Below are positions 2,678 through 64,000 of a stretch of DNA of 64,000 nucleotides, piece by piece. The notes beneath the pieces were generated by a model. The model was not told the origin of the DNA, did no database searches, and saw only the letters and a program-made list of their open reading frames with translations. A program made the position numbers and the translations under genes. Each line of letters opens with the position of its first letter. The stretch's first letter is position 1. The stretch lies in assembly GCA_002772745.1 (NCBI GenBank), contig PFDV01000008.1, positions 21,828 to 85,827 on the forward strand. The letters run 5' to 3'. Source of the stretch: Candidatus Peregrinibacteria bacterium CG10_big_fil_rev_8_21_14_0_10_55_24 (GTDB lineage: Bacteria; Patescibacteriota; Gracilibacteria; Peribacterales; Peribacteraceae).

Positions 2678-2740
2678 CCTCCCGCACTTTCTGCACCTCC
2701 CGCACCTTCCGCACCTTCCTGACTTTCCGTACCTTCCTCT
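2678..2740 (+). repeat. 9-bp-period pyrimidine array, 7 units
   Basis: Units: cctcccgca ctttctgca cctcccgca ccttccgca ccttcctga ctttccgta ccttcctct. A weaker periodicity extends over about 2610..2765. It lies directly upstream of the TACACT box and the M23 start. Confidence 0.85.
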
Positions 2741-4205: not shown

Positions 4206-4235
4206 ACCCGAACCCGAACCCCAACCCGAACCCTA
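4206..4235 (+). repeat. 6-bp tandem array (ACCCGA)n, 5 units
   Basis: Units: acccga acccga acccca acccga acccta. Located between the rlmD 3' end and the rlmH start. Confidence 0.85.
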
Positions 4236-6660: not shown

Positions 6661-6699
6661 CCGCAGATGGGGCCTCCCAAACCTTCTGCAGTTCTTGTA
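6661..6699 (+). repeat. Miniature purine/pyrimidine 9-mer pair (hairpin-capable)
   Basis: Reads cgcagatgg gg cctcccaaa ccttctgca. The two pyrimidine units are identical to units at 24823, 63199 and 36882, 63154. Confidence 0.6.
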
Positions 6700-7510
6700 C
6701 GCTATTCCCATGCGTTCGCGCGTGCTCCTCTGGATTTGGCTCGCCTGTGATATGGCGCTCTTCGTGGGAAGTTACGCACTGGCGTACTTCCTGCGGGTTG
6801 GATGGATCTTTTCCACCGACTTCCCCTTTGATCGATTCCTGACAACCGCCCTGCTCGTTGCACCGTTCTGGCTGGTCGTCCTCGCAACGACGAGGACGTT
6901 CCACCTCACGCGCAATCAGCGCACGCTGCGCAACGCGGCGTACATTGTCTATGCAGCACTCGTGGGCGTTGCGCTCTTCGTCCTGACGTACTACTTCCGC
7001 TACACCACGTTCTTCAGCCGGCTCCTCCTCTTGGAAGCCCTCATGCTTTCCACGGTGATCACTCTGGCTTGGCATGTGGTGTTCCAAACACTGCAGCGTC
7101 GTATTCTCCTCTGGGATCCCCCGCGCTTCCCCACACTGATCATCGGCGTCACGCGCGAATCCAAGCGGCTCATCACCATGCTCCAACAACGTCACAACCC
7201 CCTGCACCCCGTGGCCATCCTCGACGGACGAGGTGCAAACGAGAAAGAGATTTCCGGCGTGCCGGTGCTGGGAAAACTCAATAAGTTGGAAGAAACACTG
7301 GAGAACTATCGCATCACGCACCTCATTCAATGCAGTGACCTCGAGCAATCCATGAACTTGCTTTCCGCCTGTCGCCAGCGGCAGATCACCTACCTGCTCC
7401 TCCCCTCCCTGCTGGGCATTGTAGAACGCGACGAGCGCGTGGAATCGCTCGAGGGACTCCCCGTGACCATGGTGAGTCCCCAGCGTCACTGGTGGAACTG
7501 GTTCTTTTAA
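6695..7510 (+). CDS. N-terminal (transmembrane plus CoA-binding-like) part of a WcaJ/WbaP-type polyprenyl glycosylphosphotransferase. The catalytic Bac_transf domain is missing.
   Basis: Four or five predicted transmembrane helices, then TLIIGVTRESKRLITMLQQ...PVAILD...GVPVLGKLNKLEETL, the typical central domain. The ORF stops (…PQRHWWNWFF*) where the sugar-transferase domain normally begins. Confidence 0.5.
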   Translation: MYAIPMRSRVLLWIWLACDMALFVGSYALAYFLRVGWIFSTDFPFDRFLTTALLVAPFWLVVLATTRTFHLTRNQRTLRNAAYIVYAALVGVALFVLTYYFRYTTFFSRLLLLEALMLSTVITLAWHVVFQTLQRRILLWDPPRFPTLIIGVTRESKRLITMLQQRHNPLHPVAILDGRGANEKEISGVPVLGKLNKLEETLENYRITHLIQCSDLEQSMNLLSACRQRQITYLLLPSLLGIVERDERVESLEGLPVTMVSPQRHWWNWFF

Positions 7511-7632
7511 AAGAGAGGGGAGAAGCATGAGTGAAAAAGAGGAGCAAGAGGAACAACCATCCTGCTCTCCGGCTTCTTTGCCCCCTTTCTTCCTCTGCTT
7601 CCTTTTCCTCTTTTTTCTCTCCCATACGCTCA
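7503..7632 (+). repeat. Purine-rich arm followed by a pyrimidine-rich arm, both with about 9-bp periodicity (imperfect long inverted repeat)
   Basis: Purine arm: aaaagagaggggagaagcatgagtgaaaaagaggagcaagaggaac. Pyrimidine arm: tcctgctct ccggcttct ttgccccct ttcttcctc tgcttcctt ttcctcttt tttctctcc. Confidence 0.7.
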
Positions 7633-8606: not shown

Positions 8607-8641
8607 ATGCGAAATGGAGCATGGAAAATGGATAATGGCAA
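8607..8641 (+). repeat. 7-bp tandem array (ATGGAnn), 4-5 units
   Basis: Units: atggagc atggaaa atggata atggcaa. It starts 3 nt after the nucleotidyltransferase stop codon. Confidence 0.75.
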
Positions 8642-22128: not shown

Positions 22129-22180
22129 GATGACAGAGTGTGCTGATGGTGTTGCGCACGGTCAAGAGAGGAAGTGTAAA

Positions 22181-22215
22181 AACCCAACCCGAACCCTAAT
22201 CCTAACCCGAATGCC
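22181..22215 (+). repeat. 6-bp-period CCCGAA/CCCTAA-type array
   Basis: Reads aacccaacccgaaccctaatcctaacccgaatgcc. Located between the efp start and the 3' end of the anti-sigma gene. Confidence 0.8.
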
Positions 22216-24166: not shown

Positions 24167-24736
24167 TTACATGTTTTCTGCGAATTCCGGTGGGAGGGCG
24201 TCGCGGAACCGCTTGAGGGCACGAAATTTGAGGACACGAATGGAGCCTTCGGAGGTTTTGAGGACTTTGGCAACCTCTGCCGTGGAAAGGCCGGAGAGGT
24301 ACGAGAGTTCCAAAACTTCACGATAGCGCCGAGGGAGCACGGCAAGAGTTTTTCTTACAACCGCCAGGAGGTGTGCGCGTTTGACGCGCGTATCCGCTTG
24401 GTTGAACTCATCGGTATCGCACAATTCTTCGGGGACTTCTTCCCATGTACGCGTGGTCCGGTACGCATCAATCACCTCATGACGCGCAATGCGGAAGAGC
24501 CACGCCCCAAAGGGGACATTTGCACGGGGCTTGTATGTGTAAAGCTTTTCCCAGGCTTTCACGAAGATTTCTTCCGTCAGATCTTCTGCAGCCGCACTTG
24601 GCGCACGTAACGCCGCGTACCGATAGACGGACGGGAAGAAGTGATCGTAGATGCGGCCAAAGGCGGCGGTGTCTCCCTCCTGTGCCTGTGCGACGAGGCG
24701 GGAGATCGCCGCGGGATCGAGCTCCGGCGACGGCAT
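24167..24736 (-). CDS. ECF-type RNA polymerase sigma factor
   Basis: FGRIYDHFFPSVYRYA, EIFVKAWEKL, WLFRIARHEVIDAYR and region 4 LSYLSGLSTAEVAKVLKTSEGSIRVLKFRALK. Confidence 0.85.
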   Translation of the reverse strand: MPSPELDPAAISRLVAQAQEGDTAAFGRIYDHFFPSVYRYAALRAPSAAAEDLTEEIFVKAWEKLYTYKPRANVPFGAWLFRIARHEVIDAYRTTRTWEEVPEELCDTDEFNQADTRVKRAHLLAVVRKTLAVLPRRYREVLELSYLSGLSTAEVAKVLKTSEGSIRVLKFRALKRFRDALPPEFAENM

Positions 24737-24765
24737 GAGGTGGGCAGTATAGCAGAACGGGGCAC

Positions 24766-24903
24766 GGAAAAGAGGTTTTGGTCGGTTAAGAAGGTTTCGT
24801 CAGGTCAGGGAGTTGCCGTAAGCCTCCCAAATCTCCTGTACCTCCCTTACCTGCCAAACCTCTTGTTTCTCCCACACCTTCAGCACTTCCCGCACTTTCA
24901 CAC
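24766..24903 (+). repeat. Inverted pair of 9-bp-period arrays (purine-type arm 24766..24819, pyrimidine-type arm 24823..24903)
   Basis: Right arm: cctcccaaa tctcctgta cctccctta cctgccaaa cctcttgtt tctcccaca ccttcagca cttcccgca ctttcacac. Left arm: ggaaaagag gttttggtc ggttaagaa ggtttcgtc aggtcaggg agttgccgt. Confidence 0.8.
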
Positions 24904-24909
24904 CCCTCC

Positions 24910-26733
24910 TCACTCCCACTCGATCGTCGCCGGAGGCTTACTCGTGAGATCGAGGAAGACCATGTCGATACCAGAGAGCGTCATGATGCGCTCTATCATG
25001 GCACGCAACGCCGACTCCGGAAGGTGAGCGGCATCGGCCGTCATGGCATCGGTAGATTCGATGGGGCGCAGGACAATCGATTGTCCGCCCGTACGCGTGC
25101 CAAACGGGAGGAGTACCACGGGGAACTGCCAAATGGCCTCATAGAGCCCGGCTTTGCGTACCTCTTCCATCACCATGGCATCGGCCTCCCGCAGGAGGTT
25201 CGCGCGCTCGCGGCTAAGGAACCCCGGGGTGAAGACAAAGGGAACGGGCTCCGCATGCGACATACTGAGGAGCACGCGATTGATCTGCGGCGTGGTGTTG
25301 GGGATCTCCGTCGCCAAACGTTCCACCTCGGGAGGAACGGAAAAGGGATCTTCACAGAAGAGCGCGAGCGCATGGCGATAGGTACGCCCGTCGCCCTGTA
25401 CACCAACGGACTTCACTGGCAACACCTGGCTTCTGATTCCTGGCTTCTGATTTTCGACCGAAGGTACATCAACAACGTCGGGCTTCTCTGCACAGAGGAT
25501 GCGCACGCCCAAGCCCGGACCCGGAAAGGGATGGCGCCATACCAAATCATGTGGCAATCCCAGTTCCTCGCCGAGCTTGCGCACCTCATCCTTGTAAAGA
25601 TCCTTGAGCGGCTCCACCACGAGACCTTTGTCGATCATCTCCTGAATCATTTGCACTCGGTTATGGTGCGTCTTGATCTGATCGGCATGCTTGGTGCCTC
25701 CCGTTTCGATGGTATCGGGATAAATCGTCCCCTGCCCCAGCATCCACCCTTGCTCCGCGGTGAGTCCCATTTCAGCGCTGACGCGCTGCTGCACGGCAAC
25801 GAATGTATCACCGATGACTTTGCGCTTCGCTTCGGGCTCGTAGACGCCGGTGAGGTTGGCGAAGAATTCTTCGGAGGCATCTTCGACACGCAAGTTGGGA
25901 AGCTTGAGCTTGCCCAGTGCTTCCTCGATTTGCCGCACTTCATCCTTGCGCATGAGTCCGGTATCGACGAGCAACCCCTGCACGCGATCAGTACCGAGGA
26001 TGGAATCGAGGAGGGTGAAGGCAACCGTGGAATCCACTCCACCAGAGACGAGCATGAAGACTTTATGATCCTCGACTTCGCTGCGGATGACGTCGCCGAT
26101 GTGCGCGGCGTAACTCTTCACCGACCAGGGTGCGGGGTTACAGAGCTCCACGAAACTCCGGAGGATGTCGTTTCCATGCTGCGTGTGCGTGACTTCGGGG
26201 TGGAACTGCAGCGCGAAGAGCTTGCGCTTTGGATCTTCGAACGCGGCATTCGCACAGGCATCGGAGGTGGCAGTACGCACAAATCCGGCAGGAAGCTCTG
26301 TGGCCTCGTCTCCATGCGACATCCAGACGACGAACTCTTCCGGGCACGCATGGAAAAGCATTGATCGTTGACACGAGCCCGAACCCTCAACCCGAATCCG
26401 CGTCCGCCCGTACTCCTTCACTTTCCCCTGCATCACCGTTCCATCCAGTGCCTGCGTCATCCAGTGGAGTCCGTAACAGAGCCCCAAGATAGGAATTTTC
26501 AAATCGAAGATTTTGGGGTCAGCCTGAGGGCTCCCCGACTCGTACACGCTTTGGGGACCTCCGGAGAGAATGATTCCGGCTGCACCCTGGAGCGCCGAAG
26601 CCGGAGTTTCGGGCGGGAGGATCTGCGCATATGCGCCAAAGCGCCGAACACGACTTGCGATAAGGTGCGCGTACTGACCCCCGAAGTCGAGGATAACGAT
26701 GCTCTGGGGGTGCTCCATACGCATAGAGTACAT
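24910..26733 (-). CDS. guaA: GMP synthase (glutamine-hydrolysing), long form with an extended C-terminal dimerisation region
   Basis: GATase (ILDFGGQYAHLIA, LGLCYGLHWM, VWMSHGD, LQFHPE), the ATP-PPase P-loop VSGGVDSTV, and the C-terminus KPPATIEWE. Candidate starts are 26733, 26724 and 26718. The upstream part of track ORF 24910..27042 is not GuaA-like. Confidence 0.9.
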   Translation of the reverse strand: MYSMRMEHPQSIVILDFGGQYAHLIASRVRRFGAYAQILPPETPASALQGAAGIILSGGPQSVYESGSPQADPKIFDLKIPILGLCYGLHWMTQALDGTVMQGKVKEYGRTRIRVEGSGSCQRSMLFHACPEEFVVWMSHGDEATELPAGFVRTATSDACANAAFEDPKRKLFALQFHPEVTHTQHGNDILRSFVELCNPAPWSVKSYAAHIGDVIRSEVEDHKVFMLVSGGVDSTVAFTLLDSILGTDRVQGLLVDTGLMRKDEVRQIEEALGKLKLPNLRVEDASEEFFANLTGVYEPEAKRKVIGDTFVAVQQRVSAEMGLTAEQGWMLGQGTIYPDTIETGGTKHADQIKTHHNRVQMIQEMIDKGLVVEPLKDLYKDEVRKLGEELGLPHDLVWRHPFPGPGLGVRILCAEKPDVVDVPSVENQKPGIRSQVLPVKSVGVQGDGRTYRHALALFCEDPFSVPPEVERLATEIPNTTPQINRVLLSMSHAEPVPFVFTPGFLSRERANLLREADAMVMEEVRKAGLYEAIWQFPVVLLPFGTRTGGQSIVLRPIESTDAMTADAAHLPESALRAMIERIMTLSGIDMVFLDLTSKPPATIEWE

Positions 26734-36421: not shown

Positions 36422-37132
36422 CTACAGCACATGTTCTCTCCTCCATCGCTCTATTTCGGCGTGATTGCCGTTGAGGAGCACATCAGGAACTGCGAATTCC
36501 TCAAATTTCTCCGGGCGCGTGTAGTGGGGGTATTCCCGCTTGCGCTTGAGACATGCAGAGAAGCTCTCCTCGTGAGCGGATTCATCCTTCCCCAGCACCC
36601 CAGGAATCTGCCGTGCCACGGCATCAATGAGCACCATGGCGGGGAGTTCCCCGCCCGTGAGTACGTAGTCGCCGATCGAAATCTCCTCATCGATCCACCC
36701 GCCGTCGATGACGCGCTGATCAATGCCTTCGTAGTGTCCGCAGAGCAGGAGCAGATGATCGTACGATCGAGCCATGCGCTCAACGCGCGTTTGCGTAAGA
36801 CGCTTACCACGCGGGGAGAGGAAAATCCTGTGCGGACGCTCCGCGCTTCCCGCACTTCCCTTACCTTCCTTACCTGCCGAACCTTCTGCACCTCCAGCAC
36901 CTTCCCCACTCACCTCCTCAATCGCCCGCACCACCACATCCGCTCTGAGAACCATACCCGCCCCGCCCCCGTACGGCCGGTCGTCGACTTGGCGGTAGCG
37001 ACCCAAACCCCACTGCCGCAAGTCGTGGCAATGGATGGAAATCCGCCCCTCCTCCTGCGCCCGCTTGAGAATGCTCTCGGTCAGGGGCCCTGTGAACATG
37101 CCTGGGAACAGCGTCAAGATGTCGATGCGCAT
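36422..37132 (-). CDS. trmD: tRNA (guanine37-N1)-methyltransferase, with an in-frame low-complexity insertion
   Basis: [69 protein letters not shown] and NHAEIERWR. The insertion is [24 protein letters not shown]. Confidence 0.95.
36837..36908 (+). repeat. 9-bp-period array inside the trmD coding sequence (8 units, in frame)
   Basis: Units: cgctccgcg cttcccgca cttccctta ccttcctta cctgccgaa ccttctgca cctccagca ccttcccca. Positions 36881..36905 are identical to 63153..63177 (25 nt). Confidence 0.9.
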
Positions 37133-40664: not shown

Positions 40665-41915
40665 TCAGGGAAGCCAAGGGGAAAGGTCGTACGTCTCCGT
40701 GCGAATGACGGGAAAAAGCGAAACCCCTTCTTGCAGTCGATGCACGGCAACGCTCAATTGGCCATCGGAAGACAGGTGCATATCCCCTGCAAAGAGGGCC
40801 GCACCGTAGCTGGGGGCAGAAGCGAATGTCTCTCCAGAAGCAGCGTACGCAACGGTGTGTATTTGCCGCGTACGCAGTTCCAAGAGTTCGATACGACTCC
40901 CGTCCGCGGAGAGGAAGACAAAGGCCTGGTAGCCGGGGAGGATCCATCCGGAATCCTGCGCGGTCTCCACATGGGCGACTTGTTGCAGTTGCCTCTCGGC
41001 CACATTGAACACCCAGAGTTCTGATCCTGTATCACCGCTACGGGACGCTTGCCGGAGGAATACATGACCATCCACGACAGGGGCTTTCTCTCCGTCATCA
41101 AATGTTTCGGGGACAAGGAGAGCCAACGCACCCTCGATGAATGGGGATACCTGCCGGTACGGATTGGCATCTGTGCTCAGGACGCATGTGCTGTCTGCAA
41201 TCCCTTCATCGTCAGCCGGCATAATGCCCAAGAGCGTTTGCATGCCGACTGCATCGGTCTGCAACCGCACGGAAGCAATCTCGCGATCGGCACAGTCGTC
41301 ACCGGAGAGAATAGAGGAGACTGCATCCTGGGATACGAGAGCTTGGTAGAGGTACGCGGCAATATCTTTACGGGGCACCGGAGCATCCAAACGCACACCC
41401 GAAGAAGACGTCAGGGCACCCGGAGGAAGAATGTTTCGTGCAATCGCGGCATCGAGGTACGGGGCGAACCATGCTTCCGGATCATAGAGTCCGGTATCTC
41501 CCAACTGCACAGCATCGTAGCCACGAGCCTTCACAAGCATCTTCAGTGCCTCGACAAGGTTGACAGGATCGCCGGGCCGGAACATTCCGTCGGCGTACCC
41601 CTGCACCCACCCTTGCTGAGCCGCAAAGCACACGGCGGGTGCGAACCACTCCGTATGCACATCGGGAAAACAATCATGGTATTCCTGCGGACTGAGTTGT
41701 CTTCCGCTGATACTCACAAAGAGTTTCATGAGCTCTGCGCGGTTAACTTTTGTATCGGGACGGAACGTGCCGTCGGGATATCCGCTCATCACCCCTTCTT
41801 CCTGCAAATACCCGATAGATCGTGCGTAGGCATGCCCTGGAGAAACATCCGGATACGCCGCAGATGCGGGAAGTGCCCAGAAGAGAAAACTGATGAGGAG
41901 GAACATGCGCACCAT
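40665..41915 (-). CDS. Secreted S-layer-homology (SLH) domain protein
   Basis: Signal peptide MVRMFLLISFLFWALPASA, then two or three SLH repeats (YPDVSPGHAYARSIGYLQEEGVMSGYPDGTFRPDTKVNRAE; FPDVHTEWFAPAVCFAAQQGWVQGYADGMFRP). Confidence 0.8.
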   Translation of the reverse strand: MVRMFLLISFLFWALPASAAYPDVSPGHAYARSIGYLQEEGVMSGYPDGTFRPDTKVNRAELMKLFVSISGRQLSPQEYHDCFPDVHTEWFAPAVCFAAQQGWVQGYADGMFRPGDPVNLVEALKMLVKARGYDAVQLGDTGLYDPEAWFAPYLDAAIARNILPPGALTSSSGVRLDAPVPRKDIAAYLYQALVSQDAVSSILSGDDCADREIASVRLQTDAVGMQTLLGIMPADDEGIADSTCVLSTDANPYRQVSPFIEGALALLVPETFDDGEKAPVVDGHVFLRQASRSGDTGSELWVFNVAERQLQQVAHVETAQDSGWILPGYQAFVFLSADGSRIELLELRTRQIHTVAYAASGETFASAPSYGAALFAGDMHLSSDGQLSVAVHRLQEGVSLFPVIRTETYDLSPWLP

Positions 41916-41918
41916 AAC

Positions 41919-43724
41919 TTAGGAGAGCAGAGAAGTAAGACGGACAACCAGGTCTGTGGAGGAAAACGCCCGACCATCATACGCAAGAATGCGATCGTTG
42001 ATCGTCGTTATACCATGCATGGCAAGAAGCATATGGAGTTGGCCTTGCTGATTCCCCTCAACGAGCACTCTGCGTTTTGCACGAGCAGCAAGCGCACGGA
42101 CCCGTTCTGTTTTGAGTGGCCAGAGATATGTGTAGTGAAGATATCCGATAACCGAGGAAACATGCGTCGCGGTCAACTCTTCCAGAGCATCAAGGGCTGC
42201 GCCCTTCGTACTCCCCCAACCCACGACAAGGAGATCTATTTGACTTCCTGCACTTTCCGCACCTTCCAACCCAATCTCCCCATCTCTCGCCACCCACAAC
42301 TCCGGACCAGGCAATGATTGCTGCAACACTTTCATCTTACGCATGCGTTTCTCCATCTGCGCCTTGGCATTCTGCGCCGATTCTTCGAAGGACCCATCGG
42401 GCGCGTGCTCGTAGCTCTGCGCGCAGTATGTCGCCGCCTTCGTCCCGGGGAGCCAGCGAGGCGAGACGCCGTTCTCCTCATCCGTCGCGTAGCGATCGGC
42501 AGAGGTGAGACTGGCGAGCTTGCGAGCATCCGTCACGAGCGCACCACGGCGCAGCTGAGTGCGATCCATGGGAAAGTGCTCCACGACCGAGATGGCCTCC
42601 GCGGTGTGTTTGTCCGTGAGAACAATCACGGGGAGCTGCCACTCTTCGGCCAAGTTGAATGCTTCCGGCATCAGGGAAAATGCGTCCACGGCATCGCTCA
42701 CGGAAAGCACGACGCGCGGAAACTCTCCGTGGCCACTCCCAACCGCAAGGAGTAAGTCCCCCTGTGCTGTCCACGTGGGGAGTCCCGTCCCAGGACCGGG
42801 ACGCTGCGCGAGCACAATGACAAGGGGTGTCTCAGAAATACCGCACATCGATACGGTTTCTGTCATCAGGTCGTAGCCACCGCCCGAGGTGGCCGTTGCC
42901 GCGCGCGTTCCGGCGTGCATCGCACCCACGGTCATCTGCACCGCAGTGATCTCGTCCTCGGCCTGCTTGATTACCATGCCGGATTGCTTCTGAATATCGG
43001 CAAGGAAGGAGAGGAGCGGCGATGCAGGGGTCATGGGATACCCCGCGAAGAATCTGCATCCCGCGTGCACCATCCCCAAACCCATAGCCTGACTCCCTGT
43101 GAGGAGCAGTTGATTTTTCCAACGATCATCGGGCTTTGGGAGTGAAAGCCGCAATGCTTCCGCCTGCTCCTGAGCAAACGCCCATCCCGCATCGATACAT
43201 GCAAGGTTCTGTGCAAGCAGATCCTTCTTGTGTCCAAAACGTTCCTGAACGAGCGCGAAGAGTTCCTCCTTGGCACGACCGAGAATGGCCCACACCACCG
43301 CCGTAATGAGCACATTCCCTAAGATCGGCTTGGCATGAAGCTTTGCGAGAATTTCCTCCGTCGGCAGGTAGAGGACGGAAATCTCCCGGTCTCTGAGGTA
43401 CTCTTGATCTTCTGGACGCTCAAAGGTCCATTGGAGCGTCTGGTGGAGCAGCACGCCCCCCGGCTTGAGATCATGGAGATTGAAAAGGATGCCATGGTGG
43501 TTAAAAGAAACAACAACATCTACGAGTGCAGAGGAACTGCGAACCAGACTGTCACTGACATCCAGTTGGTAACTGCTATGTCCGCCCTTGATCAACGATG
43601 CATACTCACGATTGCCGAACACGCAGTACCCCGCACGCTTGAGACCCTTTGCCACCATCTCCCCCACGGAGTTCACTCCCTGGCCTTGGGCGCCGACGAT
43701 CTTGAAAGCGATACGATTAGCCAT
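41919..43724 (-). CDS. korA: 2-oxoacid:ferredoxin oxidoreductase, alpha subunit (gamma-alpha fusion type)
   Basis: N-terminal POR gamma-like KIVGAQGQGVNSVGEM, then the alpha domains (FFAGYPMTPAS, ATSGGGYDLMTE, VVGWGSTKGA). Confidence 0.9.
   Translation of the reverse strand: MANRIAFKIVGAQGQGVNSVGEMVAKGLKRAGYCVFGNREYASLIKGGHSSYQLDVSDSLVRSSSALVDVVVSFNHHGILFNLHDLKPGGVLLHQTLQWTFERPEDQEYLRDREISVLYLPTEEILAKLHAKPILGNVLITAVVWAILGRAKEELFALVQERFGHKKDLLAQNLACIDAGWAFAQEQAEALRLSLPKPDDRWKNQLLLTGSQAMGLGMVHAGCRFFAGYPMTPASPLLSFLADIQKQSGMVIKQAEDEITAVQMTVGAMHAGTRAATATSGGGYDLMTETVSMCGISETPLVIVLAQRPGPGTGLPTWTAQGDLLLAVGSGHGEFPRVVLSVSDAVDAFSLMPEAFNLAEEWQLPVIVLTDKHTAEAISVVEHFPMDRTQLRRGALVTDARKLASLTSADRYATDEENGVSPRWLPGTKAATYCAQSYEHAPDGSFEESAQNAKAQMEKRMRKMKVLQQSLPGPELWVARDGEIGLEGAESAGSQIDLLVVGWGSTKGAALDALEELTATHVSSVIGYLHYTYLWPLKTERVRALAARAKRRVLVEGNQQGQLHMLLAMHGITTINDRILAYDGRAFSSTDLVVRLTSLLS
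42244..42270 (+). repeat. 9-bp-period array inside the korA coding sequence (3 units, in frame)
   Basis: Units: cttcctgca ctttccgca ccttccaac. They encode GLEGAESAG on the gene strand. Confidence 0.7.
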
Positions 43725-47693: not shown

Positions 47694-47725
47694 CTCTGCG
47701 TTTATTTTCTTCCTTTCCTCATCCC

Positions 47726-48346
47726 ATGAAACGCTTTATTTCTCCCCGCCATGAGCTGCGTCGAATGGTTCCCGTCCTCATAGCAGCAGGCACCCTCGCT
47801 CCGCTCGTCGCGCTGGCGCAAGAACCGGCAGCTGCCGAGGTGGTCACGCATGCAGGAGCAATCCAGTGGGGCCTTGGCCTCGCATTCCTCGGTGCCGCCC
47901 TTGCGACATTCCTTGCCTGTCTTGGCTCCATTCTTGGCGTCGGTGCCATGGGTCAGGCCGGTGCCGGTCTCCTTACCGAAAAGCCGGATCTTGCCGGCAA
48001 GGTCATCACCCTCATGGTGCTTCCCGGCTCCCAGGGACTCTACGGCATGGTGATTTCCCTGCTCTTCATCTTCAATTACGGCCCGGTAATCTCGGGCGAA
48101 GTTTCCATCAGCGTGAGTCAGGGATTCATCCTCCTCATGGCCTGCTTGCCCGTTGCCATCACCTGTCTCACATCAGGACCCTACCAATCCAAAGTCTGTG
48201 CTGCGGGTCTCCATATGCTCGCTCGCGACGACAAGCTCGCCGGTCGCGTGATCACGATGGCCGCTCTCGTGGAAACATACGCACTGCTCGGATTCCTGAT
48301 CTCTTTCTTCATGATGAACAGTTTCCGGGCTGGCATCATCGGCTAA
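47726..48346 (+). CDS. ntpK: V-type ATPase subunit K (c-ring proteolipid, double hairpin)
   Basis: LPGSQGLYGMV and AALVETYALLGFLISF resemble Enterococcus hirae NtpK. The start is taken at ATG 47726 (track start 47690). Confidence 0.85.
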   Translation: MKRFISPRHELRRMVPVLIAAGTLAPLVALAQEPAAAEVVTHAGAIQWGLGLAFLGAALATFLACLGSILGVGAMGQAGAGLLTEKPDLAGKVITLMVLPGSQGLYGMVISLLFIFNYGPVISGEVSISVSQGFILLMACLPVAITCLTSGPYQSKVCAAGLHMLARDDKLAGRVITMAALVETYALLGFLISFFMMNSFRAGIIG

Positions 48347-48377
48347 TTGCTTTCCCCCTCTCGTTCCCTCCGTTCCC

Positions 48378-50299: not shown

Positions 50300-50335
50300 T
50301 TCCCCAACCCCAAGTACTCCATTCCCCAGTCCACC

Positions 50336-52180: not shown

Positions 52181-53611
52181 ATGTCCACTGCTTACAAGAC
52201 TGTCACCGATATCGCCGGGCCGCTCCTCATGGTTGATGGAGTGGAAGGCGTAACGTACGACGAGCTCTGCGAGGTAGAACTCGTAAGCGGCCGCAAGATC
52301 CTCGGGAAGGTGCTTGAATCCCGCGAGGGCGTTGCCGTAGTGCAACTCTTTGAATCCGCACAGGGTGCGGCAACGGAGGGCACCAAGGTTCGATTTTTGG
52401 CGCGCGCGTTCCAAATCGGCGTTTCCGAGGACATCCTTGGTCGTGTGTTCTCCGGATCGGGCCGCCCCATCGATGGAGGCCCGGACATCGTCCCCGAGAA
52501 AAGGCTCGACATTAACGGAGTTCCCATCAATCCATTCACACGCGAGTACCCGGATGACTTCATCCAAACGGGCATCTCTACCATCGATGTTCTCAATACG
52601 CTCGTACGCGGACAGAAACTGCCTATCTTCTCCGGAGCGGGCCTCCCCCATAACCAGCTCGCTGCCATGATCGCACGCCAGGCCCGCGTGCTCAATCGCG
52701 AGGAAGTGGAGAGTGGCAAGGCGGCGGAAGGGAACGAAGGCGCAAAGGAGAGCGGAGAGAAATTCGCAGTGGTCTTCGCAGCTATGGGTGTGACCTTCGA
52801 GGAAGCGCAGTACTTTCAACAAGAATTCGAGCGTACCGGCGCTCTCGCACGTGCCGTTCTCTTTGTAAACACGGCCGATAATCCGGTCGTCGAACGCATT
52901 GCCACCCCGCGTTTGGCGCTCACGACTGCGGAATACCTGGCTTTCGAGAAAGGCTACCACGTGACCGTGATTCTTACGGATATGACCAACTACTGCGAGG
53001 CGTTGCGAGAAGTTTCCGCCGCCCGCAAAGAGGTCCCCGGCCGTCGCGGCTATCCCGGCTACCTCTACACCGACCTTGCAACGATCTACGAACGTGCGGG
53101 ACGTATCCGCGGAAAGGAGGGATCCATCACGCAGATCCCGATCCTTACGATGCCAGAGGACGATGTGACGCATCCCATTCCGGACCTGACAGGCTACATC
53201 ACCGAAGGGCAGATCCGTTTGGACCGCGGCCTACACCAGAAGGGCATCTTCCCGCCGGTTATTCCGATGGGATCGCTCTCTCGCCTCAAGGGAAAAGCCC
53301 AAGGAGAGGGCAAAACGCGAGCGGACCACAGCGGATTGGATGCTCAGCTTACTGCCGCCTACGCACGTGGATCCGAGGTGCGCGAACTTGCGGTGATTCT
53401 CGGTGAGTCATCGCTCAATGAGGTAGATAAGACGTACCTGAAATTCGCTGATCGCTTCGAGAAGGAATTCATCACACAGGGCGAGCAGGAGAATCGTTCC
53501 ATTTTCCTGTCACTTGCGATTGGATGGGATCTCCTTACAGAACTCCCGAAGGAGGAGCTCAAACGGGTGAAACCTCAGCACATCGAACAGTACCTCAAGA
53601 AGCAATCCTAA
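52181..53611 (+). CDS. ntpB: V-type ATPase subunit B, with an in-frame low-complexity insertion
   Basis: [40 protein letters not shown] and [17 protein letters not shown]. The insertion [21 protein letters not shown] lies before FAVVFAAMG. Confidence 0.95.
52700..52762 (+). repeat. 9-bp-period purine-strand array inside the V-ATPase B coding sequence (7 units, codon-aligned)
   Basis: Units: gaggaagtg gagagtggc aaggcggcg gaagggaac gaaggcgca aaggagagc ggagagaaa, which translate to [21 protein letters not shown]. Confidence 0.75.
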
Positions 53612-58473: not shown

Positions 58474-59584
58474 ATGCATCCTCCTCCCTTCTCCGTGGAA
58501 GAACTCCTGCAAAAACTTCGGGAATTGAGTTCCGCCGTCAACACGGGGAAGGACTCTCTTTGAGGCACGTGGAGTCCCAAAGCGCATTGCGGAGCTTGAA
58601 AAGCGATCTCAAGCCCCCGATATCTGGAACGATCAACGAGCAGCGAATGCTCTTTTTGCAGAACTCAGAGGATTCAAGAAGCAATGGGAACCTGTGGAGA
58701 GCCTCACAGAGGAAGTACAAAGCCTGTTAGAGCTAACAGAGCAGGCCAAACCGGAAGACGAACCGAGTTTGGCGGAGGAAGCACAGAAACTTGCAGAGCA
58801 GTGGGAGAAACTGGAGACGCAGCTCTACCTCGCAGGGGAATTCGATATGCAACATTGCTACCTGACGATCAGCGCAGGTGCTGGCGGCACAGAAGCACAG
58901 GACTGGTCGCAAATGCTCCTGAGGATGTACACGCGCTACTGCGAGCGCCAGGGATGGAAAACTGACATTCTGGAGAAGACCGACGGTCAGGAGGCCGGCA
59001 TCAAATCCGTGACGCTCTACATCGCAGGATCACCGGCATACGGATACCTCAAGTGCGAGCGTGGAACGCACCGCCTAGTACGCCTTTCGCCCTTCAATGC
59101 GAAGAACCTGAGACAGACGAGCTTCGCGCTCGTGGAGGTACTGCCGGAGATTCCGCAGACGGCAGAGGTGGAGGTTGACGACAAAGACTTGCGCATAGAT
59201 ACCTACCGTTCCAGCGGCGCGGGAGGGCAGCACGTGAACAAGACCGACAGCGCCGTGCGCATCACCCATCTGCCCTCGGGAATAGTCGTGGCCTGTCAGA
59301 ATGAGCGCAGCCAACAGCAGAACCGCGCTCAGGCCATGAACATGCTGCGTGCGAAATTGCTGGAGCGCGAACGCGAGGAGGAGGCCAAAAAAAAGAGCTC
59401 ACTGAAAGGAGCCACAAAGAGCGCGGATTTCGGACAGCAGATCAGGAGCTATGTTCTCCACCCGTATCAGATGGTAAAGGACTTGCGGACCGACGTGGAG
59501 ACGAGCGATACGACAGGCGTACTGGATGGGGATTTGCAGGAGTTCATCGATGCGCAGCTGAAAAGCCTCGCAAAGGGCAACTAG
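58474..59584 (+). CDS. prfB: Peptide chain release factor 2, requiring the programmed +1 frameshift at CTT TGA G (join 58474..58560, 58562..59584)
   Basis: Frame 0 reads MHPPPFSVEELLQKLRELSSAVNTGKDSL then TGA (58561..58563). The +1 frame continues EARGVPKRIAELEKRSQAPDIWNDQ...SPF...GAGGQHVNKTDSAVRITHLPSG. An SD-like GGGG lies upstream of the slippery CTT. Confidence 0.9.
58544..58563 (+). promoter_or_regulatory. prfB programmed +1 frameshift site (SD-like GGGG, slippery CTT, in-frame TGA)
   Basis: Reads ACG GGG AAG GAC TCT CTT TGA G. Compare E. coli AGG GGG TAT CTT TGA C. Confidence 0.85.
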
Positions 59585-61254: not shown

Positions 61255-61264
61255 CAACGAAAAA

Positions 61265-61290
61265 AGGTGCCACCGGGCACCTCTTTCGGT
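61265..61290. terminator. Bidirectional intrinsic terminator between the convergent genes 59605..61254 and 61309..61479
   Basis: Stem AGGTGCC (61265..61271) pairs with GGCACCT (61276..61282), loop ACCG. An A-run lies upstream and CTTT...TT downstream. Confidence 0.6.
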
Positions 61291-61308
61291 TCGAGAGTAA
61301 TCCTTAAA

Positions 61309-61704: not shown

Positions 61705-61793
61705 GGAGGGATGGCTGAGTGGTCGAAAGCGCACGACTCGAAATCGTGTAGACCCTCTGGGTCTCGAGGGTTCGAATCCCTCTCCCTCCGCCA
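61705..61793 (+). tRNA. tRNA-Ser (anticodon CGA), class II with a long variable arm, CCA encoded
   Basis: Folded by hand. Acceptor GGAGGGA/TCCCTCC; anticodon stem CACGA/TCGTG with loop CTCGAAA; variable arm GACCC-TCT-GGGTC; T arm GAGGG-TTCGAAT-CCCTC; discriminator G plus CCA. Confidence 0.9.
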
Positions 61794-62826: not shown

Positions 62827-63036
62827 CTACACCCTCTTCCCCTCCTGCAGACGCTTGGAGAGCGTGCGCAGGTACGCCGCAGAAACTTTCATTGTTTTAA
62901 AGGTGCCCGTGGCAGGATCCCAGACACGCTTCTTCTGCAGATTAGGACGAAACGTGCGGCGTGTGTGCCTCAGTGAGTGGCTGCGGGTATTCCCCACGGC
63001 GGTCTTTCTGCCGGTCTTGACGCACTTGCGTGCCAT
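62827..63036 (-). CDS. rpmB: 50S ribosomal protein L28
   Basis: [38 protein letters not shown]. Confidence 0.9.
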
Positions 63037-63047
63037 AGAGCCTGCAG

Positions 63048-63076
63048 AGAGTACTCACTGACGGAAAAATCGTCAA
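63048..63076 (-). promoter_or_regulatory. Sigma-70-like promoter TTGACG-17-TACTCT upstream of rpmB
   Basis: Minus strand: TTGACG (63076..63071), a 17-nt spacer, TACTCT (63053..63048), then 11 nt to ATG 63036. Confidence 0.5.
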
Positions 63077-63084
63077 CGATTTCG

Positions 63085-63234
63085 CGGGAGAAGTGCGGGC
63101 AGTGCAGAAGCTGCGGGATGTACGAAACGCAAAAGCAATCGAGCCGCTGTTCACCTTCTGCACCTCCAGCACCTTCCGCACCTGCCAAACCTTCCTAACC
63201 TCCCAAACCTTCCACACCTCCTGCACCTGCGCTA
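63085..63234 (+). repeat. Inverted pair of 9-bp-period arrays in the rpmB/M50 divergent intergenic region (purine-type arm 63085..63129, pyrimidine-type arm 63154..63234)
   Basis: Right arm: ccttctgca cctccagca ccttccgca cctgccaaa ccttcctaa cctcccaaa ccttccaca cctcctgca cctgcgcta. Left arm: cgggagaag tgcgggcag tgcagaagc tgcgggatg tacgaaacg. Confidence 0.9.
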
Positions 63235-63250
63235 CACTCGCACCTCACCC

Positions 63251-63931
63251 ATGGCACTCTTCTCCAACATCGGCGAGTTCGCCCCCTTCGTCATCGCCAT
63301 TTTGATCGCGCTTTCCGTCCATGAATTCGCACACGGCCTCGTGGCACGACGCCTGGGTGACCCCACCGCCGAGACAGAGGGAAGACTCACCCTCAATCCC
63401 CTGGCACATCTCGATCCTTTGGGGACACTCATGTTCCTCTTTGTAGGATTCGGTTGGGGGAAACCTGTTCCCGTGAATCCCCTTTACTTCCGCCACCCCA
63501 AGCGCGACACCGCACTGGTGTCACTCGCGGGACCAGTGAGCAATCTGCTCCTCGCTTGGATCGGCTTTAGCGGACTCGTGCTGCTTGGCACCTCACAGCT
63601 GAACCCTTCGCTCCTGGGCATCATCAGAACGGGGTCCACGGGAGGCATTGTCCTGGTCATCGAACAGATCCTGCGCGACACGATCTTCATCAACCTGGCG
63701 CTGATGGCGTTCAACCTGCTTCCCATCGCCCCGCTGGATGGATCGAAAGTTCTCCATATGTTCATCCCGCTACGTTATGAGGATGCGTACGTGGAATTCA
63801 TGCGGCGCGGACCGTTTATTCTCCTGCTGCTCCTCATCGCAGACCAGCTTCTCAATATCCCCATCCTCTTCGGATGGATCATGGGCATTGTGGGACCGGT
63901 GGTTGCCCTGATGAATGCTGTAGGGGGGTGA
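63251..63931 (+). CDS. Site-2 protease family (peptidase M50) membrane metalloprotease
   Basis: LSVHEFAHGLVARRLGD (HExxH), NLLPIAPLDGSKV, and multiple transmembrane helices. Confidence 0.85.
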   Translation: MALFSNIGEFAPFVIAILIALSVHEFAHGLVARRLGDPTAETEGRLTLNPLAHLDPLGTLMFLFVGFGWGKPVPVNPLYFRHPKRDTALVSLAGPVSNLLLAWIGFSGLVLLGTSQLNPSLLGIIRTGSTGGIVLVIEQILRDTIFINLALMAFNLLPIAPLDGSKVLHMFIPLRYEDAYVEFMRRGPFILLLLLIADQLLNIPILFGWIMGIVGPVVALMNAVGG

Positions 63932-63999
63932 GTATGAAGTATGAAGTATGAAGTATCTAGTATAAGGAAGCTGGATACTGAATACTCAATACTCGATAC
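63929..63999 (+). repeat. Inverted pair of 7-bp tandem arrays (AGTATnn direct, then ATACTnn), truncated by the window edge
   Basis: Reads gtatgaa gtatgaa gtatgaa gtatc...tagtataagg aagctg gatactg aatactc aatactc gatact. The second block is the reverse complement of AGTAT-type units. Confidence 0.8.
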
Positions 64000-64000
64000 T

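Follow-up and report, generated by a model that had tools for sequence, protein, structure and literature searches.

Degenerate 9-bp tandem arrays dispersed through spacers and housekeeping genes of a Peribacteraceae genome

The stretch analysed here (the window, 64,000 nucleotides) comes from an uncultured groundwater bacterium, Candidatus Peregrinibacteria bacterium CG10_big_fil_rev_8_21_14_0_10_55_24, and corresponds to positions 162701-226700 of a 322-kb metagenomic contig; the homologues of its TrmD, M50 protease and M23 peptidase belong to Candidatus Peribacteraceae and Candidatus Peribacter riflensis, at 65-77% identity. Near its right end, in the divergent spacer between rpmB and the M50 protease gene, lies the type locus of a family of short head-to-tail arrays. 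We find that the family unit, CCTYCNNNA, occurs at six of the eight loci at which an original prediction, made from the letters of the window, had placed it. It is probable (about 0.6) that these arrays are long simple-sequence repeats (LSSR) of the kind to which the short tandemly repeated repetitive (STRR) sequences belong, built on a 9-bp unit in which a core ACCTYC is joined to three variable bases.

Arrays in spacers and in genes

Among the 31 units of the four long arrays, columns 1, 2, 3, 5 and 9 are almost fixed (C, C, T, C and A), whereas column 4 takes C, T or G and columns 6-8 are variable, just as had been proposed; the purine strand reads TGCGGAAGG. A position weight matrix (PWM) made from the units of these arrays was scored over three consecutive units with a threshold of 16.0 bits, the 95th percentile of 100 first-order Markov simulations of the window, in which the maximum was 23.1. 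Seven arrays exceed the threshold, the pyrimidine strand being the plus strand in six and the minus strand in one (63094-63120). The four seed arrays fit the matrix by construction; independent support comes from Tandem Repeats Finder (TRF), which reports periods 9 and 18 at 2678-2737 and 63152-63228, and from a degenerate 23-mer, CYTYCHGCACYTYCHGCACYTYC, which matches seven times in the window and never in 100 dinucleotide-preserving shuffles, the control that the original prediction had itself named. In the genome collection the same 23-mer has more than 117 unrelated single matches among the matches listed (Streptomyces, Pseudomonas and others). Arrays have 3-9 units, and their flanks are unrelated between loci. 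Beyond the window the family was not seen again, either in the 8 kb on its left side or in the 10 kb on its right. The features, with PWM scores, are these.

63154-63234, plus strand: right arm of the type array (35.6; TRF period 9/18; identical in seven assemblies)
63094-63120, minus strand: left arm of the type locus, three weak inverted units facing rpmB (18.3, barely over 16.0)
63233-63238, plus strand: -10-like box TACACT of the M50 protease gene, in register with the array; ATG at 63251 (read from the sequence)
63048-63076, minus strand: promoter-like pair of rpmB, TTGACG (63076-63071), 17 nt, TACTCT (63053-63048); ATG at 63036 (read from the sequence)
2678-2740, plus strand: seven-unit array upstream of the M23 peptidase gene, in a divergent spacer (36.0; TRF; Pfam for the gene)
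6673-6699, plus strand: mini-array CCTCCCAAA CCTTCTGCA GTTCTTGTA between two plus-strand genes (21.4)
24823-24903, plus strand: array of 8-9 units that reaches the guaA stop codon (30.6; TRF; Pfam for the genes)
36846-36908, plus strand: seven-unit array within trmD (36422-37132, minus strand) (32.6)
42235-42270, plus strand: three-unit array within the alpha-subunit gene of 2-oxoacid:ferredoxin oxidoreductase (POR; 41919-43724, minus strand) (25.8)

The type right arm consists of the eight units CCTTCTGCA CCTCCAGCA CCTTCCGCA CCTGCCAAA CCTTCCTAA CCTCCCAAA CCTTCCACA CCTCCTGCA, followed by CCTGCGCTA, whose final two bases open the -10 box, so that the unit runs into CACT. The first two units of the mini-array at 6673-6699 are identical to units of the type array. 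The array at 24823-24903 is flanked by guaA (minus strand, stop codon 24910-24912) and by a downstream gene for a sigma factor of the extracytoplasmic-function (ECF) type (24167-24736, minus strand), upstream of which it lies; the spacer 24737-24909 thus sits between two minus-strand genes and is not divergent. The remaining loci of the original list stay below the family threshold: 7503-7632 (8.2), 52700-52762 (-1.4) and, in the spacer between guaA and the sigma factor gene, the left arm 24766-24822 (8.2). Likewise, the proposal that arrays form inverted pairs in divergent spacers holds at one place, 63094-63120 with 63154-63234, the only true inverted pair of family arrays. The tract at 7503-7632, outside the family, is a purine-rich arm followed by a pyrimidine-rich arm that pair imperfectly into a long hairpin (-41.9 kcal/mol, z = -2.4); with a plus-strand gene on either side, it stands directly ahead of a TACACT leaderless promoter, and a tract resembling it is found in the rpmB/M50 spacer of a relative (L214).

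Identical units do recur between loci, and they do so beyond expectation, with 6 pairs observed and 1.3 expected (P = 0.008); the rare units CCTGCCAAA and CCTCCCAAA are among them. The longest match, an exact identity of 25 nt between trmD (36881-36905) and the rpmB/M50 spacer (63153-63177), spans nearly three units. Trimmed to whole units it leaves a 24-nt block common to both arrays, which arose in none of 5000 column shuffles and in 0.3% of shuffles that permuted the real units among arrays (P = 0.003), so that the match is indeed far beyond chance. Given that the block exceeds both types of shuffle, it suggests that several units were copied together between loci, rather than drawn repeatedly from one repertoire. 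PWM, 23-mer and shared-unit statistics together bear out a genuine dispersed family.

The rpmB/M50 spacer is 100% identical across seven independently assembled contigs (ENA, JGI and Logan), and longer overlapping contigs carrying identical proteins are 100% identical too. An assembly artefact, against which the original prediction had wished to guard, is therefore excluded. Intergenic DNA makes up 9.2% of the window, yet it contains four of the six family loci (P about 1e-3). Cut into 32 2-kb bins, the window shows negative GC skew in 25 of them (cumulative -1.16), and the C-rich strand is the plus strand in six of the seven 9-mer arrays and in both hexamer arrays described below; this may be a replication-strand bias of the arrays, or a mere consequence of gene orientation.

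Two family arrays lie inside conserved genes. On the gene strand, the trmD array reads as codons NNN-GRA-GGT and encodes 21 residues, and the protein has 23 residues in place of 3 in the solved structure 3ky7. In 30 Peribacteraceae relatives this TrmD loop is hypervariable, from 0 to about 60 aa, and of low complexity (for example GEKGKRGNKRMKGKKGS); its DNA is again a 9-bp array and, in some, a 7-bp array. The 9-mer matrix also matches the TrmD-loop arrays of two of the relatives (L133 and L145), with zero matches in 436 kb of other phyla. The POR-alpha array is read in the same frame as that in trmD and encodes LEGAESAGS. The protein was aligned to 6n2n_A, and of 12 Peribacteraceae orthologues 8 lack the loop or have a much shorter one. 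By these alignments the trmD and POR-alpha copies are in-frame insertions, as had been suggested, and lie in hypervariable loops. In the V-ATPase B protein the segment encoded at 52700-52762 is an 18-residue low-complexity insertion, rich in Glu, Gly, Ala and Lys, when compared with the enzyme of Enterococcus hirae (7dqc_D), and it may descend from an array that has decayed, though the DNA no longer scores as family. Two neighbouring observations concern the host genes: a gene for an SLH-domain (S-layer homology) protein (40665-41915) stands between the alpha and beta genes of POR, and guaA holds a perfect 14-bp duplication (CCTGGCTTCTGATT twice, 25425-25452), its 710-aa product being about 100 residues longer than the L141 orthologue.

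Promoters, orthologous sites and arrays of other periods

As far as can be read from sequence, the genome uses leaderless or near-leaderless promoters. TA[CT][AG]CT ending 4-13 nt upstream of annotated starts occurs 7 times where 0.38 are expected (P = 1e-7), and TANNNT stands in the upstream position of at least 18 of 53 genes. The individual -10 boxes are our own reading, backed by this enrichment; a sigma-70 consensus scan of the two main spacers gave no match, and the rpmB pair fails the strict consensus. A leaderless style agrees with the class of Shine-Dalgarno-scarce genomes in which P. riflensis has been placed (PMC10783764). Examples with TA[CT][AG]CT 6-12 nt before the start codon are seen at 2757, 6698, 7642, 20085, 24746, 37141 and 63233; a C-rich stretch follows the box up to the ATG (cccctc, attccc, atccccg), and short operon-internal spacers of the V-ATPase cluster (47694-47764, 48347-48377 and 50300-50335) are likewise C/T-rich up to the ATG. 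A separate observation on translation is that the release factor 2 gene (58474-59584) has a classical programmed +1 frameshift: the open reading frame from the ATG at 58474 stops at CTT TGA (58558-58563), preceded by GGGGAAGGA, and the +1 frame leads to the annotated 296-aa PCRF/RF-1 product. Its Shine-Dalgarno-like stimulator is unexpected, as the lineage is reported to be without the CCUCC anti-Shine-Dalgarno (PMC10783764). An Rfam scan of the window gave a tRNA-Ser (61705-61790) as its sole match, and none on the arrays.

Three arrays run into such promoters. Besides the type right arm, these are 2678-2740, from which degenerate units carry on in register to TACACT (2757-2762; M23 ATG at 2769), and 6673-6699, which passes in register into TACGCT (6698-6703; ATG at 6710). 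In all three the TA of the -10 box falls on unit positions 8-9, the final units being CCTGCGCTA, TCCGCCCTA and GTTCTTGTA. The earlier statement that arrays end at a -10-like box thus describes three of them.

The closest comparison for the type spacer is the sister L211, with an M50 protease 88% identical and an rpmB/M50 spacer of about 113 bp, compared with 214 bp in the window. On the M50 side the 24 bases from the -10 box through the ATG, CGCTACACTCGCACCTCACCCATG, are identical to those of the window; on the rpmB side the start is kept, the TCGTCAACGA stretch around the -35 is identical, and the -10 is TACCCT where the window has TACTCT. As for units, L211 has only CCTTCCGC beside TACACT on the M50 side and about two on the rpmB side; at the position of the right arm it has about 1 unit against 8.5 in the window. 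Since L211 keeps both promoters with so few units, the arrays appear not to be needed for them. The type arrays either grew from seeds in the lineage of the window or collapsed in L211. Comparison of orthologous spacers, which the original prediction had advised, thus uncovers differences in unit number and, across relatives, turnover. L213 has an 8-bp array in the rpmB/M50 spacer, and L214 a 65-nt C/T-rich tract pointing at M50. In L215 and L216, whose M23 peptidases are 77% and 76% identical, the M23 gene lacks an upstream array and short arrays are nearly absent altogether; in L215 the M23 gene has TACGCT and the TrmD loop is minimal. A search with the M23 peptidase for a second sister species found no relative closer than 77%.

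Turnover is seen most clearly among four genus-level relatives (74-78% nucleotide identity). At three orthologous sites the flanks are conserved, and the arrays differ in unit, in period (7 or 8 bp) or in presence. At an intergenic site L133 has the inverted pair (AAGACAT)n/(ATGTCTT)n; L137 and L148 have different units there, and L149 has no array. A site in a membrane-protein loop holds 7-bp, 7-bp and 8-bp arrays with unrelated units. At an epimerase loop the units of three species, CGAGTATT, GGTATTC and GAATCGG, all hold a GTATTCG derived from the flank. The presence of a species-specific variant in every unit of an array suggests concerted evolution, by slippage or unequal exchange, from a local seed.

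Short arrays, with 7-bp units in most genomes, appear to be a trait of the Peribacteraceae lineage: among the loci from one search, heptamer arrays number 15.6 per 100 kb for Peribacteraceae and 2.8 for other phyla. A rough gene call places 39 of 58 arrays within genes, and all ten array-bearing reading frames that were checked have a Pfam match (among them O-antigen-ligase-like protein, UDP-GlcNAc 2-epimerase, GMP synthase and oxidoreductase). In-frame heptamer arrays of 21-35 bp are seen in conserved genes of L131-L158 (L151 9806-11500, L139 17821-19251, L133 16297-17850); the gene for the O-antigen-ligase-like protein holds several. In these heptamer arrays differences between units are limited to one or two columns.

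The window itself has arrays of other periods. Between M50 and a DUF5989 gene an inverted 7-bp pair, (AGTATGA)x3.7 / (ATACTCA)x3.7+, occupies 63931-64000 and continues into L001 (10681-10764); the region 63925-64000 folds as a ladder of 5-bp helices (z = -6.4). At the same place L211 has three units without an inverted arm and L214 has (AGCTCAT)x3; the DUF5989 gene is tandemly duplicated together with its promoter, with a 251-bp period. An (AAATGGA)x3.9 array at 8612-8638 occupies the 30-bp gap ahead of a gene at 8635. Telomere-like hexamers, (CCCGAA/CCCTAA)n, stand between minus-strand genes at 4206-4233 and about 22166-22205; their transcribed strand is GGGTTC/GGGTTA and has at least four GGG tracts. 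Similar hexamers follow trmD in P. riflensis (L149 10696-10739, AGGGTT) and L131, and L214 has CCCTAA and AACCTT.

Origin of the arrays and rival readings

If the arrays are simple-sequence repeats, each would have arisen locally, from a short seed, and would grow, shrink and be homogenised through replication slippage or unequal exchange, with occasional copying or conversion between arrays at different loci. In so compact a genome they would survive only where they do little harm, in spacers (roughly 9% of the DNA) and in protein surface loops, where one strand in one frame would give a harmless peptide rich in Gly, Glu, Ala, Ser and Lys. We infer the mechanism, slippage and recombination, and the near-neutrality of the arrays from their distribution and from the relatives. 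The trmD-loop array is taken to be old because it is common to relatives, and the rpmB/M50 array to be young because the sister L211 is without it. Thus, the shared block probably moved from trmD, or from a third locus, into the spacer.

Several observations weigh against this account. The 25-nt shared block calls for copying between loci, a step that is not directly seen, and no unit-number polymorphism is found in the seven assemblies, all of one clone. Heptamer arrays of 2, 3, 4 and 5 copies number 42, 20, 22 and 1, with none longer, a distribution that is not geometric; for the other periods copy number decays monotonically. Variable columns are too few, 78 in 59 indel-free heptamer arrays where 99.6 are expected, and they are adjacent in 12 of 22 cases where one third is expected; a separate detector finds six columns with three different bases while the remaining unit is constant or nearly so. 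In the 9-mers, too, differences are concentrated in columns 4 and 6-8 and not spread evenly, a pattern not expected if a slipped repeat simply decays. Some of the columns that stay constant in the coding copies are synonymous third codon positions, which rules out selection at the protein level as the cause of the constancy. Finally, the three promoter-proximal arrays stand in one and the same 9-bp phase to the -10 box. Part of the column effect can come from the history of duplication, and the shared register would suit seeding by the bases that immediately precede the -10 box; functional coupling fits it equally well. Together, fixed columns, register and copy ceiling leave room for a binding factor or a repeat-writing activity.

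The arrays could instead be part of the promoters, as cis-acting architecture upstream of leaderless promoters, in which ACCTYC every 9 bp forms a row of sites for RNA polymerase or for an architectural or regulatory protein. The common register of three arrays, leading into TA[CT][AG]CT that ends 6-12 nt before the ATG, has a chance of about 1/81 if phases are free; a fixed core with a variable spacer resembles an array of sites; arrays are enriched in intergenic DNA, and in L214 the same spacer has its 65-nt C/T-rich tract toward M50. We nevertheless regard the promoter reading as improbable. With roughly one unit where the window has eight, L211 still shows the M50 -10 box, discriminator and start unchanged and the rpmB -35 stretch conserved, and the M23 gene of L215, 77% identical, has TACGCT and no array. 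Members of the family also lie within trmD and POR-alpha and by the 3' end of guaA, places without a promoter, and relatives have unrelated units at the same sites. The role as UP elements that had been put forward is weakened by these same comparisons, the sister keeping both promoters without the arrays, and by composition: an UP element is an A/T-rich tract at about -40 to -60, and the arrays are C/T-rich and G+C-rich. The arrays thus do not appear to be a required part of promoters, nor, from the folding results given below, of terminators.

It is a good deal less likely that the arrays derive from a small mobile element able to insert at any site, even in frame within genes, in the manner of Rickettsia palindromic elements or miniature inverted-repeat transposable elements (MITEs). 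Such an element would account for the 25-nt block common to trmD and the rpmB/M50 spacer, which goes beyond the unit repertoire (P = 0.003), for the recurrence of the rare units CCTGCCAAA and CCTCCCAAA, and for coding copies inserted in frame. Against it, constant ends, terminal inverted repeats, target duplications and a full-length consensus are all lacking, and the arrays vary from 3 to 9 units between unrelated flanks; the L211 spacer has seed units at both positions; orthologous arrays of relatives share flank-derived units and evolve in concert; and the trmD-loop array is old and vertically present in relatives. Of the likeness to Rickettsia palindromic elements that had been suggested, what survives is that the copies are in frame and tolerated; constant ends and a full-length consensus are missing, and the arrays evolve in concert from local seeds.

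There is a slightly smaller chance that a dedicated activity writes the arrays, for instance a repair or template-switching polymerase. Such an activity would reiterate a core of 5-6 nt and add 1-3 poorly templated junction bases. It would explain the layout of fixed core and variable columns in the 9-mers and in the heptamers of relatives, the ceiling of about five heptamer copies (35 bp) and the genome-specific unit families; arrays would then arise at breaks genome-wide, selection sparing those in spacers and protein loops.

Least likely of all is that inverted arrays form hairpins or cruciforms that serve as terminators, RNA stabilisers or insulators between divergent promoters. In favour of it, a purine arm does precede a pyrimidine arm at 63085-63234, 24766-24903 and 7503-7632, the 7-bp inverted pair close by at 63925-64000 gives a strong fold (z = -6.4), and the arms of a heptamer pair co-vary at an orthologous intergenic site in relatives. 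Against it, neither strand of the two inverted 9-mer regions gives a fold that surpasses shuffled sequence (z -1.0 to -1.8), and the solitary array at 2640-2760 is unfolded (z = -0.1). Family significance is reached by a single left arm, and terminator-like sites number 0 in consensus scans of the two main spacers. The type spacer, being divergent, has no transcript to terminate, and ordinary hairpin-plus-T terminators exist elsewhere (61255-61308; L217 15816-15871). The terminator or insulator hairpin of the original prediction is accordingly not upheld, its exclusion of other repeat classes is: the 9-bp units are contiguous and without spacers and there is no constant 25-40-bp repeat, as in CRISPR, nor, with z between -0.1 and -1.8, the stable G+C-rich stem-loop of an intrinsic terminator or of the repetitive extragenic palindromic (REP) sequences and bacterial interspersed mosaic elements (BIME).

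Regardless of how the arrays are made, their setting is of interest. Peribacteraceae genomes are of about 1.2 Mb (the P. riflensis contig has 1,248,112 bp) with little spare DNA, and short arrays are tolerated and renewed in them beside promoters and inside essential enzymes, namely TrmD, 2-oxoacid oxidoreductase, GMP synthase, UDP-GlcNAc epimerase and an O-antigen-ligase-like protein. They offer a natural system for the origin and spread of bacterial simple-sequence repeats and of disordered 'expansion segments' in conserved proteins, with array-rich sister lineages such as L139, L151 and L133 and array-poor ones such as L215 and L216 on hand for comparison. In practice, arrays can cause breaks in assemblies and errors in gene calling and promoter searches for genomes of the candidate phyla radiation (CPR). 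Should the fixed core and the copy ceiling reflect a dedicated enzyme or a binding protein linked to leaderless promoters, the arrays would be much more important.

Comparison with known repeat systems

To regard the arrays as an undescribed class of element, as the original prediction did, is too strong: dispersed arrays of 5-11-nt units (LSSR, STRR, GGGNATC, TAACTGA) and the in-frame repeats of Borgs have been described (PMC4679880, PMC4692102, PMC9879509). LSSR with units of 5-11 nt, dominated by heptamers, occur across prokaryotes and have been ascribed to slippage (Mrazek, Guo & Shah 2007, as summarised in PMC4679880). As far as that summary goes, they share with the present arrays dispersed head-to-tail organisation, length greater than chance, abundance restricted to lineages, heptamers as the commonest unit (as in the relatives here), tolerance within genes of units in multiples of three, and slippage as the proposed cause. 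The present arrays are likewise head-to-tail repeats of a unit within 1-11 nt, as TRF reports, and longer than composition would predict, as the 23-mer and PWM scores of 21-36 indicate. They differ from LSSR, as summarised, in their degenerate units with a fixed core, the multi-unit blocks shared between loci, the streamlined CPR host and in-frame heptamers in essential genes.

STRR and GGGNATC repeats, like the 9-mers, form one unit family per genome at many intergenic sites close to the ends of reading frames (PMC4692102). The GGGNATC repeats of Xanthomonas and Nostoc prefer about four units (PMC4692102), which parallels the shoulder at 4 and ceiling at 5 of Peribacteraceae heptamers. They differ in their 7-bp unit and in having four G-tracts of at least 3 for a quadruplex, where the 9-mer has GG runs only, and they are under-represented in coding DNA and divergent spacers (PMC4692102), whereas here two of six loci are coding and two are divergent. 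The 9-mer family is not built on a heptanucleotide; 7-bp arrays are co-resident with it at 8612-8638 and 63931-64000, and in relatives. The TAACTGA repeats of marine Beggiatoaceae, in 2-6 copies, lie a few nucleotides upstream of starts without a canonical ribosome-binding site, and a minority overlap reading frames; they differ in being one exact heptamer, for which a post-transcriptional role is proposed (PMC4679880). The promoter-proximal 9-mer arrays, being upstream of the -10 box of leaderless genes, are probably outside the mRNA, unlike the TAACTGA repeats.

Borg tandem repeats are also both intergenic and in frame, encode low-complexity, disorder-prone segments, have partial repeats in their flanks as seeds and turn over quickly, yet they are perfect, locus-unique and A-rich, and their genic units are all multiples of three (PMC9879509). 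In contrast, the arrays described here are degenerate, have units common to several loci and reside in conserved housekeeping enzymes; in the genes of relatives, units of 7 and 8 bp are tolerated. Rickettsia palindromic elements are repeated DNA placed in frame within conserved genes that are not destroyed by it, and are 100-150 bp long with a conserved palindromic consensus. In trmD and POR-alpha the insertion is in frame as well, whereas the arrays are defined by their unit, vary in length and have neither element ends nor a full-length consensus.

For the lineage itself, the only repeats mentioned in the Peribacteria genome paper are a single long direct one and short ones at the origin, and in the literature searched no description of such repeats in Peribacteria or Patescibacteria was found. 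What distinguishes the present arrays from the systems above is their degenerate, fixed-core 9-bp unit, the sharing of blocks between loci, the lineage of the host and the invasion of housekeeping enzymes, including, in relatives, by units of 7 and 8 bp.

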